From a virus: a stretch of 64,000 bases of DNA. The position numbers and the translations under genes were made by a program. The stretch covers positions 1 to 64,000 of IMG/VR virus record IMGVR_UViG_3300007276_000045; one strand, 5' to 3'. Shown piece by piece: positions 435-7,644 of this stretch. Each line of letters opens with the position of its first letter. The first letter of the stretch is position 1. The notes beneath the pieces are model-generated. The model worked only from the letters and a program-made list of their open reading frames with translations, did not search any database and was not told where the DNA came from.

Positions 435-897
435 GTAAATCCTTAATAGCTACGTTATAACAATTAGCCTTGACCCTGAAACCGTTAGCAGGATCAATCT
501 TTCCTTTCTTCATGAATCGGGCGTTGTCGAAATACTCTTCCTTCTTCATCTCTCCCAAGATCCAACCTTTAGACAGATCAGATAATACTCGGACAAATAT
601 ATACTTGTCACAGTTCTGCTTTGTGTTGAAAGCGGCCACTGAACAATCATAGTCTGGTTTTGGCGTTACTGTAGTACGTTTTGTTTTTACATCTACAGTC
701 TTACCCTCTGGGGTACGGAGGTCATAGTCGTAGGTGCTGTCAGTGGAGTAGCCTAGCTCCTCTCGGACTAAGATTTCCCCCAAACAGCCTGCTAGATTAC
801 CAGCACCCTTCTCAATAGAGTTTTTTAACTTACCAATTTCCATAGCACACTTCCTCGCTTCGAGGAGCATGTCATCCGTAATAGTTACTTCGATCAT
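421..897 (-). CDS. Putative PD-(D/E)XK nuclease-fold protein
   Basis: GCLGE...YDYDL...VDVKTK spacing typical of the restriction-endonuclease-like fold. Confidence 0.6.
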   Translation of the reverse strand: MIEVTITDDMLLEARKCAMEIGKLKNSIEKGAGNLAGCLGEILVREELGYSTDSTYDYDLRTPEGKTVDVKTKRTTVTPKPDYDCSVAAFNTKQNCDKYIFVRVLSDLSKGWILGEMKKEEYFDNARFMKKGKIDPANGFRVKANCYNVAIKDLHECK

Positions 898-2005
898 TTA
901 GATAGTCCTTAATTTCTTCTAGGTTTTGTGGGCTTCCATTAACATATTCGACATCAACTCCGTCACCGAAAGAGAAGCCTACTTCAGCGTCGATCTTCAA
1001 GGGTACGTCAAAGTGAATATTAAAGTTCTCTTTGATGAAAGGATAATCAACAAGCTGGGTGTGAACTACTTCCAAACATTCTTTGATGTGGTCCTTGTGG
1101 CAGATCAACTCAATACTATCGTGTACCGTAGCGCACACTCTCGCGTCGATCCCCCTTTCATTTAGAACCTTCTCTGTGCCGAGCAGACCACAAAGTAGAA
1201 TGTCGGAGGCAGTTGATTGGATAGTAAAGTTTAGCCCTTGCCTAGCCGCACGGTTAACCACCGAAAAATCTTTTGAACCAATATCAGGTAGATTGCGGCG
1301 ACGGCCAAAGATAGTGTAAGCATATTTGTTTTCCTTGATGAACTTCTCAACGAAGTCCATGTATTCGAAGATGGCGGGGTACACATTTTGATAGTTTGCA
1401 ATAATCTTCTTGGCTTTACCTACGGTAATACCCGTGGTCTCTGCCAAGTTAAAGGCACCGCCACCGTAGGCGATTAAGAAGGAGATAGCCTTTGCAATCT
1501 GGCGTTCATCTTTTGAGATCTCCTGCTTGTTGAACAATAGGCGAGCGGTGTAGGTGTGCAAGTCAGCACCTTCAGAGAAGGCTTTTTGCATGTTCCCATC
1601 CTTCGCAATGTGTGCTAGGACTCTTAGCTCCATGGCTGCGTAGTCAACCGTGATGAAGCAATAGTCTTCTGGGCAGTTGAAGAGGCTGCGGATATTATTA
1701 TCCGTATCTCTTGGTAGGGTGTGGAAAGATACACCCATAGCTTTCTGCGCGTTATATGCAGCACAAGAAAGGCGACCAGTAGCAGTGCCATCAAATCGAT
1801 AATCTACATAGACTCGATTAATGTCATTGTATTCAATTGCCTTCTTAGTCCCTTCGATATAGGTCTTGGTTAGCTTCTGCGACTTGCGAAGACCTAGGAG
1901 ACCCTTAATGAACCTTTGCGAATTTATTAGATCCTCGGTTGATTTTCCTTGCAGGACAGACTGGCTGATCCTCTTACCTTCATCTCTGTGATCCCACTTA
2001 CCCAC
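872..2005 (-). CDS. polA: Family A DNA polymerase, C-terminal polymerase subunit (part 3 of a split gene)
   Basis: TATGRLS, motif A DYAAMELRVLAH, motif B RQIAKAISFLIAYG, TIFGRRR, NFTIQSTASD, motif C TVHDSI; GTG start with GAGGAG 10 nt upstream. Confidence 0.95.
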   Translation of the reverse strand: MGKWDHRDEGKRISQSVLQGKSTEDLINSQRFIKGLLGLRKSQKLTKTYIEGTKKAIEYNDINRVYVDYRFDGTATGRLSCAAYNAQKAMGVSFHTLPRDTDNNIRSLFNCPEDYCFITVDYAAMELRVLAHIAKDGNMQKAFSEGADLHTYTARLLFNKQEISKDERQIAKAISFLIAYGGGAFNLAETTGITVGKAKKIIANYQNVYPAIFEYMDFVEKFIKENKYAYTIFGRRRNLPDIGSKDFSVVNRAARQGLNFTIQSTASDILLCGLLGTEKVLNERGIDARVCATVHDSIELICHKDHIKECLEVVHTQLVDYPFIKENFNIHFDVPLKIDAEVGFSFGDGVDVEYVNGSPQNLEEIKDYLNDRSNYYG

Positions 2006-2477
2006 GCTTATTTAGCTCCTCTTCGATGTGTTCCAGTAGTAGTTTAAGCGTAGGAGCAGACACGGAAGGTGTGCCCTTGGCTGTTCGGTCAGGAGGGTAC
2101 ATCTCGAACGCACCTTCACGGGTATATAATATCTCGATCAGGTCGTTATTTGAAGAGATGTTGTCAGAAGTCTGAACCTGCTTGAATGAGTAGAGATTAT
2201 CCTCCTCTTCAATATTAGCCACGCGGAGGTGGCGACCGACAGAATCTAGTTTCTCCTCACACACCTGCATCCCTTCATACTCCATATTAGAGAAGGTCTC
2301 AAGAGACGGCATGATGAGGGTATTAATAATCTTAGACATACCTAGATCTTCAAGCTTCTCTTGTATTAGATTGTAAAGCTTTAGAGTGAAGTATGTGTCC
2401 GCTGCGTTACCTTCACAGCAGTCGGACAGATCCATGTTTGCCCAGTCAAAGGTCTTAGGGTTCTTAATTGTAAGCAT
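1998..2477 (-). CDS. polA: Family A DNA polymerase, middle subunit (exo III helix and thumb; part 2 of a split gene)
   Basis: NAADTYFTLKLY (exo III region), MEYEGMQV, NISSNNDLIEILY (FNxxSxxQL equivalent), TAKGTPSVS thumb motif; TAATG overlap with the upstream gene. Confidence 0.88.
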   Translation of the reverse strand: MLTIKNPKTFDWANMDLSDCCEGNAADTYFTLKLYNLIQEKLEDLGMSKIINTLIMPSLETFSNMEYEGMQVCEEKLDSVGRHLRVANIEEEDNLYSFKQVQTSDNISSNNDLIEILYTREGAFEMYPPDRTAKGTPSVSAPTLKLLLEHIEEELNKRG

Positions 2478-3490
2478 TACAGGTTCTCCAGTTCGTCTGC
2501 GAAGTATAGTTTTACTAGATCCATAAGGCTCTTAGGTGCATTCTCATTGATGAGGTGGTGTGCGATCTTAGTGTCCCAAACATTCGTAACCTTGACACGG
2601 TGATTAATGAGGAACTTAAGATCAAACTTTGCGTTATGGAAAATCTTAATGTTGTTAGGGTTCGAGAGGATCTTTCGCACCGCATCCCAAGCCACATGTT
2701 TCTCTAGGAACGGTGAGTCTTTGTGATCAAGAGGAACAACCCAATTCTGATCTCCACAAGAAAACGCAATGGACATTACGCGATCTCTCCTAAAGTTCAG
2801 ACCTGTGGTTTCAATATCAGATGCTACAGGCTCCTTAGTGGAGCCTAGCTTCTCAACTAGCGATACAAGTTCTTCTTCCTCGGAGATAACCTCATAGGAG
2901 AAGTTCCCTTGGTTCTCTTTGCCAAGTACATATTTTTCATATGCATTTTTGATGTCTGTTTCGAAGAGGTATCTGTGTCGAGGCTCTTTAAGTACAGCAA
3001 AAGGATGGTAAATAGGAACAACGATGCAAGAGTGCCCAGAATTAGTAGAGTATTCATATGATGATCCACGCTTATTCATAATGCCGCTTTTCTTAATTAA
3101 CATTTTCATAGCTAAGTTGCCACAAGCAAGAACAAGGCGCGGCTTCACCTTGTCAATTGTAGCCTCTAAGTGCTGTCTACATAACACCATATTACTAGGT
3201 GTCATATCTGCCTCCTTCACAGAAGGACATTTTACTGAAGAGGAGAACGTAAGATTGTCGCCGGGGTAAATCGACTTCAATAACTCGCGCTCCTTTTTGG
3301 AGAATACTTCTAGTACCCCAAACTTACTGCGGAAGGAATCTCCCAAAACCAGAACGTCTGATTGGGAAAGTTCCTCGTAATCCATGTGGGCATACTCAGG
3401 CTTACTCTGTTGTAGTATTGTGCATCCATCACACAGTTCGTTACTGCAACTGGACTTAAGTCCTGAGTATAAGTTTTGTAGGTCGCTCAT
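2477..3490 (-). CDS. polA: Family A DNA polymerase, N-terminal subunit: family-4 UDG-like domain plus 3'-5' exonuclease motifs I/II (part 1 of a split gene)
   Basis: CDGC...VKCP...CRQHL...KPRLVLACG...PIYHP (UDG-like fold with Fe-S cysteines), then SDIETTG (exo I), HNAKFDL (exo II) and WDTKIAHHL. Confidence 0.9.
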   Translation of the reverse strand: MSDLQNLYSGLKSSCSNELCDGCTILQQSKPEYAHMDYEELSQSDVLVLGDSFRSKFGVLEVFSKKERELLKSIYPGDNLTFSSSVKCPSVKEADMTPSNMVLCRQHLEATIDKVKPRLVLACGNLAMKMLIKKSGIMNKRGSSYEYSTNSGHSCIVVPIYHPFAVLKEPRHRYLFETDIKNAYEKYVLGKENQGNFSYEVISEEEELVSLVEKLGSTKEPVASDIETTGLNFRRDRVMSIAFSCGDQNWVVPLDHKDSPFLEKHVAWDAVRKILSNPNNIKIFHNAKFDLKFLINHRVKVTNVWDTKIAHHLINENAPKSLMDLVKLYFADELENL

Positions 3491-3506: not shown

Positions 3507-3863
3507 ATGGGGAAAAAAGTACATTACATAGATAACAAAAGATTTGAAGAAATTATCCCCCTCTACCTACGAAACCCTGAGGCTTACGAGGATGAGTTGA
3601 TGGGACTGTTCGATCTATTGATCACGAATATTATAGGAAGCTTCAAGTTTAATATCGACAAAGAGGACGCAAAACAAGAATGTTTCTTGCTGGTCCTAAA
3701 GACGTTGAAGAATTTCAAACCGTCTAAAGGATCTGCCTTTAACTATTTTACGACCGTCATTGTCAACAACCTCAAACTTCTATACACGAAGAATAAGAGG
3801 TATGAAAACAAACTCTCCGAGTATGGAGATATACTGGGTGATCAGAGACCCAGTTGCTTATAG
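3507..3863 (+). CDS. Short T4 gp55-like sigma factor for late transcription
   Basis: HYIDNKRF and NFKPSKGSAFNYFT match the HYVNN and NFDPxK...FxYFT motifs of gp55-family proteins; only 118 aa. Confidence 0.75.
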   Translation: MGKKVHYIDNKRFEEIIPLYLRNPEAYEDELMGLFDLLITNIIGSFKFNIDKEDAKQECFLLVLKTLKNFKPSKGSAFNYFTTVIVNNLKLLYTKNKRYENKLSEYGDILGDQRPSCL

Positions 3864-4168
3864 ACCATCGACAGGTAGTCCTCGGACTCCATACTCCCGC
3901 GCTTAAATTGCACAAGATGCGGAACCTTCGATGTCTTAAAGATGACAAATGCGTGAGGCATCATAAAGCTGTTCACCACATAAAGAGGCTTTAGTTTACG
4001 ATTAACCGGGCCGTCCGTCTTCATCCCTCGAACCTTTTCAATCAGTTCCTTGGAATGATCGTCCCACAGGGAGACAAATAAGACACCCATATCCTGCTTA
4101 GTCTTCCTCTGATTCCTAAGAATCTTATTCAGTTGATTCTCAGTACGAATGAATACAGGTGAGTACAT
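3842..4168 (-). CDS. Thioredoxin-fold protein lacking the CxxC active site
   Basis: Aligns by eye with thioredoxin: VLFVSLWDDHSK (vs VDFWAEWCGPCK), LYVVN strand, KVPHLVQFKRG (vs GIPTLLLFKNG cis-Pro loop); no Cys in the protein. Confidence 0.7.
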   Translation of the reverse strand: MYSPVFIRTENQLNKILRNQRKTKQDMGVLFVSLWDDHSKELIEKVRGMKTDGPVNRKLKPLYVVNSFMMPHAFVIFKTSKVPHLVQFKRGSMESEDYLSMVYKQLGL

Positions 4169-4524
4169 CAGTCCTCTACAATATCGACGTTTCCACTTGC
4201 AGTAGCTTCGTCAATGCCGACGAGCTTACCCTGATCGTCAAAGTTGAACCCTGACGCTTCATAGTCCTCACGGTTCTGTTCCATATGCTGGACCATGTTC
4301 GTGGTGAGTTCCTGCTCCAAAGCACGGATGCCATGGAAAAAGAGGGACCGTACAAAGTCGGTCATTCCGAGATCAGTAGGCTTAACAGCGTTTGCAAAGT
4401 TGCGGAAGGCTTCAGCCTCCTCCTGATTGAGTTTGAGTTGGAACTTCATTCTATTTTTACTCCGATAGTCGATTTTGATATTCCACCCCTCAGGATGGAA
4501 AGCGAATTTCAAGTCGTTAGACAT
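4168..4524 (-). CDS. Hypothetical protein, possible ribbon-helix-helix DNA-binding fold
   Basis: MKFQLKLNQEEAEAF...MTDFVRSLF strand-helix-helix pattern; overlaps the start of the downstream gene. Confidence 0.4.
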   Translation of the reverse strand: MSNDLKFAFHPEGWNIKIDYRSKNRMKFQLKLNQEEAEAFRNFANAVKPTDLGMTDFVRSLFFHGIRALEQELTTNMVQHMEQNREDYEASGFNFDDQGKLVGIDEATASGNVDIVED

Positions 4525-4562
4525 TATTGATTGCTCTATTATAGTAAGAGGTTTAAGAAACT

Positions 4563-5081
4563 ATGAATGATAATTACGATTTAAGTAAGCTTCGCAAAAA
4601 ACCTAAGCGGAAGAACAGCAGGACCAAAGGTAACACCTTCGAACGGCAGATTGCCAAGCTACTCAATGATAGATTCAAGACCGAAGAATTTTCAAGAAGT
4701 CCGGGATCTGGTGCATTTGCCACCACCCATACTCTACCTGAACACCTAAAAATTTATGGAGACTTGATTACTCCACAGAAATTTAAATTCTGTATTGAAT
4801 GTAAAAAAGGATACAATAATCAAAACTTATATAGTTTATATAATTATAGTAGCGACATCTGGAAGTTTGTAGAGCAATGTGAAAAAGATTCTGGAAAATG
4901 TAGCAGACTACCCATGGTCATCTTTAAGCAAGATAGACAGCCAACATTAGCCATTGTTCCCTATGATGTAGAGTTCGGACAAGATCTCAAGTACATAGAG
5001 GTTATGAAGCAGAAGAAGTACAGGATCTATTTATTTGATGATCTTGTTAAGTGCTGGGACCATTGTTGGTTTGATGCATGA
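4563..5081 (+). CDS. PD-(D/E)XK nuclease, Holliday-junction-resolvase-like
   Basis: NSRTKGNTFERQIA, RSPGSGA, GDLI, IECKK, PMVIFKQDR: the Hjc-like phage resolvase pattern. Confidence 0.75.
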   Translation: MNDNYDLSKLRKKPKRKNSRTKGNTFERQIAKLLNDRFKTEEFSRSPGSGAFATTHTLPEHLKIYGDLITPQKFKFCIECKKGYNNQNLYSLYNYSSDIWKFVEQCEKDSGKCSRLPMVIFKQDRQPTLAIVPYDVEFGQDLKYIEVMKQKKYRIYLFDDLVKCWDHCWFDA

Positions 5082-7593
5082 GCTTTTCTAATAGCTCTCT
5101 CTGACCTTTGAGGAAGGTTATAAACAACTCTTCTTCCTCAGCACTCTTATCTTCGGACAATACATTTCGATGACCAGACTTTGTACCCATAGTCCACTTC
5201 TGGTTACCTCTTGCAGTGTCACAAGAAACTAAGGTGTCCCCGGTCTTCCTATCTACTAGTTTGATGGTTCCCCCTCCTCCGTATTCGAAGTAGGCTTTAT
5301 TGTCTTTGATCTTTTGCAGGTTATCTTCCACAACAGCATTGTTTAGATACACACTTTGGTAACTATCACCCAACCCTCTAGTGACCCTTAAGGTCTCCTC
5401 CATACTTCCAGCAGCTTGGCTGTAGCACATTGTTGCCCAAGACTTCCACCCTTCATCCGTTACTTCGCCTTGTGGCATTTCTTGTTTTAGAACTTCTTGC
5501 TGAATATCCTGCTTCACTTTTGCCAGCGCATCCAAATCTTCCTTAGTAGCGTTAGGTCTCATAGCCCTCTTAGCTGCTTCAGCCCTTTCTTTATTTTTAG
5601 GACTCTGCTGCTTCTTCTCAAACCAAGTGTTGATCCAAGCGTCAGACATCTCTGGAGTAACTCCCAATGATCCGGGAGTTAGTAATCTATCGAACTCCGC
5701 AGTCTTCTCATCAATCTCTTTTTGTTTAGCGCAGCCAGCTTTTTGAGTTCCTGCTCCCGCACAGGAATTTAATCTTTTTGAGTTACGCTTTGCAAAGTCC
5801 TTTGTGCCTTGAGTCATGCCACCCGGTACATCACTGCCAACAGTTGCATTACCGCAAATAGCTTGGGTTCTACTACTTGATATCTCACCCACACCCCCCT
5901 TACTTTTTGAATCGGTAAGAGTTTTTAGCTCTACCTCCATGACGCAACCCCCTCCTTCGGTTGGAGTCAGCATGTTTTTAACTCCAGAACCTTCTCCCCC
6001 ACAACCATTCTTAGGGGTTCCTCCAAGCTTCTTTTCATAAGAAGCAGCAACCTTGTCACAGTCCTTATCAAACTCGAACTTAAGATCAGCTTTTGCCCCA
6101 GAATCGGTCATGTTTTTGTCCCCTTCGTGGGTAACCTTGGTTGGGATAAGATCTGGATCGTCACCGAAAAGCTGCTTGTCAAAGGTTTGGTTAACGAATG
6201 AAGTAACAAGGATAGACATCATGAGTTGCCTATCCGATGGCGTAGATGCCTGTTCAATGAAAGCCTCAGCCTTCTTTTCGTCCATCCCCATCTCCTCAGT
6301 TAGCACTCGCTGACATTCAATAACAAATTGGGCATCCTCGTAAGCGGCTTCCCCTTTTGCTAAAAGCTCCCCTAGCGCAACCGACCTACCTACAGAAAAA
6401 GTTTCCATCATTTGATCGTAGCTGCCATCACTAAGTGCATCTTCATAAGTATCGGAGATACTTTGCCGCATTTCATGGAGAGCCTTCTTCTTCTCTGCAC
6501 CAGTCTCAGCTTGGGCGAACTTCGCTTGCCCCCTCATGATGTTCGCAGAGATGGTCATGAATTTCTCTGCTACTGGACCACGGTAAGACTCATTTACACC
6601 CCCTGTTTTCGCAGGAGATTCAGGAGGTTTTGCGACAGGAATTTTATACTTTCTCTGATCCTCATCTGGTAGATTCTCTAGTTGTTTGTTATACCTCTCA
6701 GCTTCGTTATTAAGCTGATCAACCATATTCCTAAGAGCATCATTTTTTGGAGAAGACTTCTCTCTAAACTGGAATCCGATGCCCCTAATAAGAACACCCC
6801 CGCGAGTAATAGTAATAGACTCAAGAAGCTTGCCTAGTTTCTTAGCTTCGGCCTCACTCATAGGCTCTTCACTACCTGCTCTTCCCCGTAACTGCCTGAT
6901 AGATAAGTCAATTTGTTGAAGACCTTCTAGTGCTCCAAGCTTTTCTTCTGGGGAAAGCTTATCTGAATTAAACACTTGCTGCTCTAACCTTTCAACGTCC
7001 CCGAAAAAACCTTTGGTCTGTCCTGCGGCTACGTTTGCAAGGGAATCAATACCTCTACCTCTCTTCTCTTCCAGACCGGGTGTGATACCTGCCATTTGTG
7101 CAAGCTCTCTAAAAGAGGTTACTACTTTCTCTGTTAGGTCTTGTACTTGCTTGATCATAGCCAAGCCTTGATCATCTCCACCTTCGCCTTCTTGCCCCTC
7201 TTCACCAGTGTCGCCTTGGTCCTTGGTGTCGCCTTCTTCCTCACCACCACCTGCCCATGCTTTCACTAATTTGTTAGCATTACTATTTTCTTTTTGCCAA
7301 GAAGTAGCCAAGCTTCCGATCTGAGAGCCACTAAGTTTAATTCCCCAACCTGAGAGATTGCTTCCAGTAACACTAACACCTTTTCCTTTGGTTACTTCAA
7401 CACTTAAATTTTTACCGTTACCTAAGCCCTCTTCTTTATGGCCCTCTTCTTCATTACGAATTCGGCCTAATTCAGTAGCTACATCGTTTGCTACCGAAGC
7501 TAGATCAGCCGCTTCTTCCTCACGCAAAGAGAGTCTAAATTTTCTGCGCTTTAACTGTTCGTAATTTTCTAAGAGTGAGTAGTAGTAATCCAT
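5047..7593 (-). CDS. Large hypothetical protein (848 aa), possibly head-packaged, with a possible PD-(D/E)XK core
   Basis: Long ORF with its own promoter-like box; KADL...EVELKT motif; N-terminal LLE/LRE sites. Confidence 0.55.
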   Translation of the reverse strand: MDYYYSLLENYEQLKRRKFRLSLREEEAADLASVANDVATELGRIRNEEEGHKEEGLGNGKNLSVEVTKGKGVSVTGSNLSGWGIKLSGSQIGSLATSWQKENSNANKLVKAWAGGGEEEGDTKDQGDTGEEGQEGEGGDDQGLAMIKQVQDLTEKVVTSFRELAQMAGITPGLEEKRGRGIDSLANVAAGQTKGFFGDVERLEQQVFNSDKLSPEEKLGALEGLQQIDLSIRQLRGRAGSEEPMSEAEAKKLGKLLESITITRGGVLIRGIGFQFREKSSPKNDALRNMVDQLNNEAERYNKQLENLPDEDQRKYKIPVAKPPESPAKTGGVNESYRGPVAEKFMTISANIMRGQAKFAQAETGAEKKKALHEMRQSISDTYEDALSDGSYDQMMETFSVGRSVALGELLAKGEAAYEDAQFVIECQRVLTEEMGMDEKKAEAFIEQASTPSDRQLMMSILVTSFVNQTFDKQLFGDDPDLIPTKVTHEGDKNMTDSGAKADLKFEFDKDCDKVAASYEKKLGGTPKNGCGGEGSGVKNMLTPTEGGGCVMEVELKTLTDSKSKGGVGEISSSRTQAICGNATVGSDVPGGMTQGTKDFAKRNSKRLNSCAGAGTQKAGCAKQKEIDEKTAEFDRLLTPGSLGVTPEMSDAWINTWFEKKQQSPKNKERAEAAKRAMRPNATKEDLDALAKVKQDIQQEVLKQEMPQGEVTDEGWKSWATMCYSQAAGSMEETLRVTRGLGDSYQSVYLNNAVVEDNLQKIKDNKAYFEYGGGGTIKLVDRKTGDTLVSCDTARGNQKWTMGTKSGHRNVLSEDKSAEEEELFITFLKGQRELLEKLMHQTNNGPST

Positions 7594-7609: not shown

Positions 7610-7644
7610 AAAAAGCCCAGCCCAGATAGTTCTAGGCTGGGCTT
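7610..7644 (-). terminator. Intrinsic terminator after the tail tube gene
   Basis: Minus strand AAGCCCAGCCTAGA-ACTA-TCTGGGCTGGGCTT followed by a T run. Confidence 0.8.

Follow-up and report, generated by a model that had tools for sequence, protein, structure and literature searches.

The 64,000-nucleotide window analyzed here (positions 1 to 64,000 of the IMG/VR virus record IMGVR_UViG_3300007276_000045) encodes a cysteine-free protein of 108 amino acids (3842..4168, minus strand), which is a member of the thioredoxin-fold superfamily and stands outside the thioredoxin enzyme family, since it has no CxxC motif and scores below the Pfam threshold. The protein is probably a binding partner and not an enzyme. 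The window derives from a distant T4-like myovirus, in which gp23, gp20, gp18, gp19, gp15, a gp21-type protease, gp25, and UvsW were identified; the phage clade is one of uncultured aquatic T4-like phages.

Sequence, fold, and family of the cysteine-free protein

The ORF starts with ATG and contains no cysteine codon, while the plus strand over the same positions is interrupted by many stops; thus, the cysteine-free reading frame reported in the initial annotation was found again, and its location on the minus strand was established. Its characteristic motifs are W35-D36-D37-H38-S39 (residues 35–39) and K81-V-P83-H-L (residues 81–85). W-C-x-x-C with the nucleophilic cysteine was absent, W-D-D-H-S occupying its place. 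Neither Pfam (E ≤ 0.1) nor PHROGs (E ≤ 0.01) gave a match, so that the end-to-end likeness to thioredoxin is invisible to standard models. In particular, the gathering threshold of PF00085 was not reached (nothing at E ≤ 0.1), and PF02966, the DIM1 family, was not matched.

The AlphaFold2 model, built on an alignment of 53 sequences, had a mean pLDDT of 84.8, and its order of secondary-structure elements (b-a-b-a-b-a-b-b-a) was that of the thioredoxin-fold superfamily. A Foldseek search of this model against PDB returned 246 matches at E ≤ 1e-3, the top ones all being thioredoxins (E values of 1e-6 to 1e-4, the best 9.9e-7; TM scores of 0.6–0.73, with 0.66–0.73 in the best group). The structure search of BFVD matched viral thioredoxins at 8–20% identity. 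The family profile run against PDB sequences matched poplar thioredoxin-like 2.1 (PDB 5nyk, E 8e-4), with W-D-x-x-S placed on W-C-R-K-C and P83 on the cis-proline; by this alignment, a cis-Pro loop is predicted before strand 4. The nearest named clusters in the ESM Atlas were viral thioredoxin (0.95) and DIM1 (0.94), these being feature scores that serve as a lead only. The thioredoxin pattern noticed earlier from the letters alone, including the tryptophan and the cis-proline, is therefore supported by the model, the Foldseek check, the profile match, and a distant family member close to the Pfam cut-off, described below. The reading of the protein as a redox-dead thioredoxin is likewise supported: the fold is that of thioredoxin, and aspartate stands in place of the nucleophilic cysteine, which makes thiol-disulfide exchange impossible.

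A word-indexed search yielded 90 homologues, none of them named and most from aquatic metagenomes, and a profile search through 1.84 billion representatives yielded 119 clusters (50% identity, E ≤ 1e-3). Members are about 100–160 amino acids long, except for one junk-like repeat protein of 805 amino acids, and fusion of the domain to another protein was not found among the 1.84 billion representatives. The family is confined to phages and has neither a Pfam nor a PHROG model. A tblastn search with the window protein found nothing at E ≤ 0.01 among 50,697 phage records; thus, no cultured relative is known. The gene was matched in all 157 sources examined, and we regard it as a real gene.

Residue statistics were obtained from an alignment of the window protein with 190 other members (n = 191). 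At position 36, 176 members have Asp, 7 have Cys, and 4 have Ser, so the nucleophile has been lost in 184 of the 191. At position 39, Ser was found in 133 members and Cys in 45. CxxC is complete in only 2 members, CxxS occurs in 5, and D-x-x-C in 43. W35 (178/191), P71 (182/191), and the cis-proline P83 (187/191) are kept almost throughout. The conserved segments, namely W35-D36, M70-P71-H72, K81-x-P83-H84, and S95-E96-D97-Y98, would correspond, judging from the fold and the 5nyk alignment, to the loops around the old thioredoxin active site.

The cysteines that persist in part of the family could mean some residual chemistry, either one-cysteine redox in the D-x-x-C, CxxS, and CxxC members or a new catalytic or metal site formed by Asp and His. 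Besides the cysteines at positions 39 and 36, a distant syntenic member with W-C-K-W-S and two recurrent histidines (H72 in 149/191, H84 in 87/191) speak for this reading. However, the window protein and 92 other members (93/191) are entirely free of cysteine, H72 and H84 are not conserved in the wider family, and a cysteine left alone at the resolving position is, by the established mechanism of thioredoxin, unable to attack a substrate disulfide. We consider residual chemistry very unlikely.

The same distant W-C-K-W-S member reaches 21.9 bits (E 1.2e-5) on the Pfam Thioredoxin model, close to the cut-off of 23.5, which indicates a descent of the family from genuine thioredoxins, with the nucleophile since lost in most members. 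The seven members with Cys at position 36 are interspersed with Asp-bearing ones in the family tree (five changes), although a tree of so short a protein is only suggestive. The codons of Asp and Cys are two bases apart; together with the repeated exchange, this would make the two residues functionally interchangeable here and hints that selection keeps a negative charge or a thiolate at position 36.

Gene neighborhood and the split polymerase

We collected 156 related IMG/VR loci with three alignments, covering near and distant subgroups; each count below is taken over the loci that extend far enough to show the feature in question. Along the minus strand, the thioredoxin-like gene is preceded by the sheath and tube genes, the gene of an 848-aa protein, and a 118-aa ORF, and followed by polA1, polA2, and polA3, with two plus-strand genes inside the block: a PDDEXK gene before the 118-aa ORF and a sigma-like gene between the thioredoxin-like gene and polA1. 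The start of polA1 lies at most 1.5 kb downstream of the thioredoxin-like gene in 128 of 128 cases; the convergent sigma-like gene comes next in 142/143, the 118-aa ORF is directly upstream in 151/152, and the PDDEXK gene is present in 147/147. This order is kept down to 21–39% identity of the thioredoxin-like protein. Co-occurrence with the polymerase, which had been proposed as a check, is thus complete and carries little weight: gene order from sheath to polymerase is conserved as a whole throughout the clade, and no member of the family was found elsewhere, so adjacency to the polymerase does not discriminate between partners.

The position on the same strand about 350 bp from polA part 1 (which begins at 3490) was given correctly in the initial annotation, which overlooked that the gap is filled by the opposite-strand sigma-factor-like gene (Sigma70_r2; 3507..3863, plus strand; PF04542, E 1.3e-5; PHROG sigma factor match in a relative). 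This gene is convergent with the thioredoxin-like gene and overlaps its 3′ end by 22 nt. Its product, 118 amino acids long, comprises sigma-70 region 2 only, covaries in rate with the sheath (0.34), and is possibly a gp55-like late sigma factor. The identities to relatives are 21–39% for the thioredoxin-like protein, 34–50% for polA3, and 51–70% for the sigma-like protein, the most conserved of the block.

On the other side, the stop of the 118-aa ORF (4168..4524, minus strand) overlaps the start of the thioredoxin-like gene. Its AlphaFold2 model (pLDDT 77) consists of a beta-hairpin, two helices, and an acidic disordered tail of variable length; Foldseek gave no match to this model at E ≤ 1e-3, and no family was assigned. 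An RHH identity for this protein was dropped on account of that model and the lack of a Foldseek match. The rate of the 118-aa ORF covaries with the tail tube (0.40–0.48), as strongly as that of true partners, and with the sheath (0.24), and the protein may be tail-related. The PDDEXK/RusA-like nuclease gene (4563..5081, plus strand; PF24608, E 3.2e-30) is divergent from it.

A weak sigma-70-type promoter-like site (4538..4567, minus strand; 10/12 matches) was located upstream of the 118-aa ORF, and a weak terminator-like hairpin with a 5-pair stem (3814..3829, minus strand) after the stop of the thioredoxin-like gene. Promoter-like sites in the region numbered 16 against 12.3 expected, which is not significant alone, and terminator-like hairpins 11 against 6.4, near the shuffled expectation. 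Together, the two sites faintly hint that the thioredoxin-like gene and the 118-aa ORF form a two-gene unit apart from the polymerase. The T4 late-promoter motif TATAAATA had 4 matches against 2.7 expected, none of them near the thioredoxin-like gene. A strong intrinsic-terminator-like hairpin (7613–7644, minus strand; 14 pairs, 8 of them G-C, followed by a run of T) separates the tube gene from the 848-aa gene. The 848-aa protein (5047–7593, minus strand), which follows the tube gene, contains low-complexity stretches rich in Gly, Glu, and Asp and is not matched by Pfam; it was detected by tblastn in only 12 of 63 related loci, which points to very fast evolution, and the 3′ end of its gene overlaps the opposite-strand PDDEXK gene.

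The thioredoxin-like protein evolves faster than its neighbors (tree length of 28.5 vs. 13.6–21.9). Such a rate is typical of proteins that interact with the host, and would suit a decoy of host thioredoxin that occupies the host thioredoxin reductase, or thioredoxin-dependent defense and stress proteins, and so rewires the host. The protein keeps the whole shape of thioredoxin and a conserved face for partner binding but has lost the chemistry, which agrees with this, and a cyanophage thioredoxin is described as toxic to its host in the available text of a preprint (bioRxiv 10.1101/2025.10.05.680603). Nevertheless, the gene is a fixed core gene, in one position in every locus, within the replication and structural backbone and not in a variable accessory region. 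We judge the decoy explanation unlikely.

The family A polymerase is encoded in three parts on the minus strand. Part 1 (2477..3490) contains a UDG-like domain (PF03167, E 1e-7) and the 3′–5′ exonuclease (PF01612, E 2.4e-22). Part 2 (1998..2477; 159 aa), recognized by PHROG 17, by alignment, and by a weak Pol nu match, comprises the end of the exonuclease domain and the first thumb helices. Part 3 (872..2005; PF00476, E 1.1e-76) comprises the remaining thumb, the palm, and the fingers, and has a GTG start overlapping the polA2 stop. The UDG-superfamily domain forms the N-terminal ~190 amino acids of polA1 and has invariant cysteines C20, C23, C88, C104, and C123. In many loci, 140–2327 bp of extra DNA lie between polA1 and polA2, and in one relative an opposite-strand ORF of 142 aa was found there.

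Residue 26 of polA3 aligns to about 265–269 of Bacillus large-fragment chains, and polA2 carries the preceding thumb helices; thus, the break between polA2 and polA3 falls in the thumb. Stop and start codons overlap at both junctions, as TAATG at polA1/polA2 and GTG..TAA at polA2/polA3. A programmed +1 frameshift at the latter was considered and rejected, as the last codon of polA2 varies (GGG, GAG, GTC, GGC, GGT) and the GTG/ATG start is kept; termination–reinitiation is more likely. In loci L001–L080, polA2 and polA3 were separate ORFs in 55 of the 55 loci where both were seen, and in L081–L156 they formed one ORF in 37 more distant loci, were separate in 10, and were ambiguous in 10. In the fused forms the thumb connection is short and ordinary; in the split form polA2 ends with about 9 extra residues and polA3 begins with about 27, both stretches being well conserved. 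In the fused-form polymerases of L137 and L149, a Lys/Arg-rich insertion of ~15–30 residues follows the T-G-R-L-S motif and could add DNA contacts.

A T7-type thioredoxin-binding insertion was not found in the polymerase, as had been noted earlier: polA2 extends only ~40 residues past the pre-insertion helix and the fused thumb is short, leaving no room for a loop of ~76 residues. The further proposal that a new interface might have arisen at the thumb break is weakened. The break itself is in the thumb as proposed; however, the 37 fused loci keep the thioredoxin-like gene, and its retention whether the thumb is broken or whole makes an interface created by the break unlikely.

Rate covariation and replisome content

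Evolutionary-rate covariation was calculated for eight proteins of the block from 157 sources, of which 79 supplied the full set; these were reduced to 63 by discarding sources with at least 97% identity. Branch lengths were re-estimated for each protein on a single topology, and residual rates were correlated over 123 branches; for sheath, SbcC, and ribonucleotide reductase (RNR), which were included afterwards, the trees were pruned. With only 102 columns, the thioredoxin-like protein gives noisy estimates, although signals of polA2 (143 columns) and of the 118-aa ORF (84 columns) were still clear. Known partners covaried well, with 0.35–0.62 among polA1, polA2, and polA3 and 0.40 for sheath and tube; RNR and polA3 gave 0.46.

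For the thioredoxin-like protein, the value with polA3 was 0.17–0.26 (p 0.02–0.06), which is lost on correction for at least seven comparisons. With polA1 it was 0.04–0.07 in the main analysis, falling to −0.12 on pruned subsets, and with polA2 −0.06 to 0.03, rising to 0.09 on pruned subsets. RNR gave 0.26 (p 0.057, 28 taxa); PDDEXK gave 0.18–0.30 in the main analysis and 0.02–0.05 on the smaller SbcC and RNR subsets; the sigma-like protein gave 0.07–0.21 and the 118-aa ORF 0.07–0.19. Values with the tube (0.05–0.14), sheath (0.10), and SbcC (−0.09) completed the set. No pair was significant after correction for the number of comparisons. The covariation of the thioredoxin-like protein leans faintly to DNA-metabolism genes and away from tail genes, and the pattern does not look like that of an obligate polymerase subunit.

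These values bear on a redox-independent adaptor or chaperone that would serve RNR, the sigma-like factor, or the 118-aa protein and have no direct role at the polymerase, which we regard as a real possibility, albeit short of probable. The gene arrangement fits it, with the translational overlap with the 118-aa ORF and the nearly invariable presence of that ORF upstream and of the convergent sigma-like gene downstream, as do the covariation with RNR and with the sigma-like protein. A class-II-type ribonucleotide reductase is encoded a few kb beyond the polymerase, and phage thioredoxins are classically tied to RNR, according to the available text of the preprint cited above (bioRxiv 10.1101/2025.10.05.680603); non-catalytic thioredoxin-like proteins acting on a bacterial-type RNA polymerase are described in plastids, in the part of the source at hand (PMC6570768). 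On the other hand, the covariation with the 118-aa protein is low, that protein following the tail tube instead; the values for RNR, sigma-like, and 118-aa proteins all lose significance on correction; and a protein without cysteine cannot reduce RNR.

The replication genes were analyzed in one relative with a complete genome of 130.6 kb, which encodes a gp32-like SSB, a DnaB-like helicase, a Toprim primase, UvsW, SbcC, the RNR large subunit, two deaminases, and the split polymerase, with a match to a UvsX/RecA fragment. Among the ORFs searched (108/144 by Pfam and 34 by PHROGs), neither a clamp or clamp loader nor a thioredoxin or glutaredoxin came to light; the remaining ORFs belong to the structural region, and the corresponding part of the window was scanned. 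Divergent clamps could escape the Pfam and PHROG models, and two unassigned ORFs of ~300 aa adjoin the helicase gene. The gp45 clamp model PF02916 gave no match in five related genomes, in a search whose control also gave no match anywhere. Six-frame searches with PF00085 and PF00462 revealed no canonical copy of thioredoxin or glutaredoxin; with PF00085, none of the five related genomes exceeded the cut-off (best 21.9 bits vs. 23.5). The 130.6-kb genome (L158) also has a metabolic island encoding ketopantoate hydroxymethyltransferase, a TPP enzyme, two radical-SAM proteins (one of them B12-binding), a DegT-type aminotransferase, an epimerase, a sugar kinase, and glycosyltransferases.

Proposed role and comparison with known systems

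We propose that the protein may be a catalytically dead descendant of a phage thioredoxin that kept the fold and the four loops around the old active site. It would act as a redox-independent protein-binding module, docking its partner by the former active-site face, and the fixed negative charge of Asp36 may replace the thiolate that reduced thioredoxin carries. The field of action would most likely be phage DNA replication or nucleotide metabolism, and the single most likely partner the family A polymerase, with an accessory or processivity-type role. The contact with the polymerase would have to differ from the T7 loop and be independent of the thumb break.

This reading as a whole, a dead thioredoxin serving as a binding module in DNA metabolism with the polymerase as the likeliest partner, is tentative. 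The polymerase comes first among the specific partners because T7 sets a precedent, the gene sits upstream of polA1, no clamp was detected, and the covariation with polA3 gives a weak signal, and naming it is still somewhat more doubtful than the reading as a whole. More doubtful again is the most specific version, in which the Asp-bearing thiolate mimic would be a subunit for processivity or assembly in a T4-like replisome that lacks a clamp and has a two- or three-piece polymerase, bound through a non-T7 interface. Several facts argue against a polymerase role: the convergent gene lies between polA1 and the thioredoxin-like gene; the rates show no covariation with polA1 or polA2, compared with that among the polymerase parts or between sheath and tube; and the protein is not fused to others, has no T7-type insertion to bind, and is kept in the loci with an unbroken thumb.

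Replicative family A polymerases need a factor that holds them on DNA, and T7 borrows host thioredoxin for this; for most other phage PolA enzymes, we know of no such factor. A clade that is clampless by detection and has a cysteine-free thioredoxin fixed beside its polymerase makes the question testable with four small recombinant proteins. If the polymerase-subunit reading were true, it would be an independent, virus-internalized reinvention of the T7–thioredoxin solution. Whatever the partner, the gene belongs to the core of a widespread phage lineage, has no annotation, and offers a clean natural case of a Cys-to-Asp change that makes thioredoxin a non-redox module. In the literature searched (main texts), we found no description of a Cys-free phage thioredoxin clade; the family was likewise not described in what was searched on redox-inactive or phage-encoded thioredoxins as polymerase factors and on the PolA of this phage group.

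Among known systems, the pair of T7 gp5 and E. coli thioredoxin resembles the present case in having a thioredoxin fold used without redox chemistry, a family A polymerase nearby, and no detectable sliding clamp. As far as the available text of the sources goes, T7 uses host thioredoxin independently of redox (bioRxiv 10.1101/2025.10.05.680603; PMC3556154), on a thumb loop of gp5 of ~76 residues, 258–333 (PMC3556154). There the thioredoxin is host-encoded, carries CGPC, and sits on the loop, whereas here it is phage-encoded, has Asp for Cys, and is encoded upstream of a polymerase whose thumb lacks the thioredoxin-binding insertion of the T7-type pair. The thioredoxin of cyanophage Syn5 is similar in being phage-encoded, of ~100–110 aa, of thioredoxin fold, and linked to genome replication. 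Canonical phage thioredoxins, as described in the text available, are redox active with CGPC or CAPC, unlike this family, with its widespread loss of the nucleophile and its failure to reach PF00085. The preprint on phage thioredoxins, in the part available, kept only canonical active sites and reported no confident predicted binding to a polymerase (bioRxiv 10.1101/2025.10.05.680603); with that restriction, it would have missed the Cys-free family.

Poplar thioredoxin-like 2.1 (5nyk) is the best sequence match of the profile, with the Trp, the active-site positions, and the cis-Pro aligned; however, it is a plant enzyme with an intact W-C-R-K-C, and the marginal match shows superfamily membership only. 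DIM1/TXNL4A, the 15 kDa protein of the U5 snRNP, has a thioredoxin fold without a working CxxC and is a pure protein-binding subunit. It is a eukaryotic spliceosome component, and its likeness to the window protein is limited to the ESM Atlas score, PF02966 being unmatched and nothing pointing to a kinship closer than the superfamily. By analogy, we read the thioredoxin-like protein as one that would work most like the thioredoxin of the T7 replisome or like dead thioredoxins of the DIM1 type.
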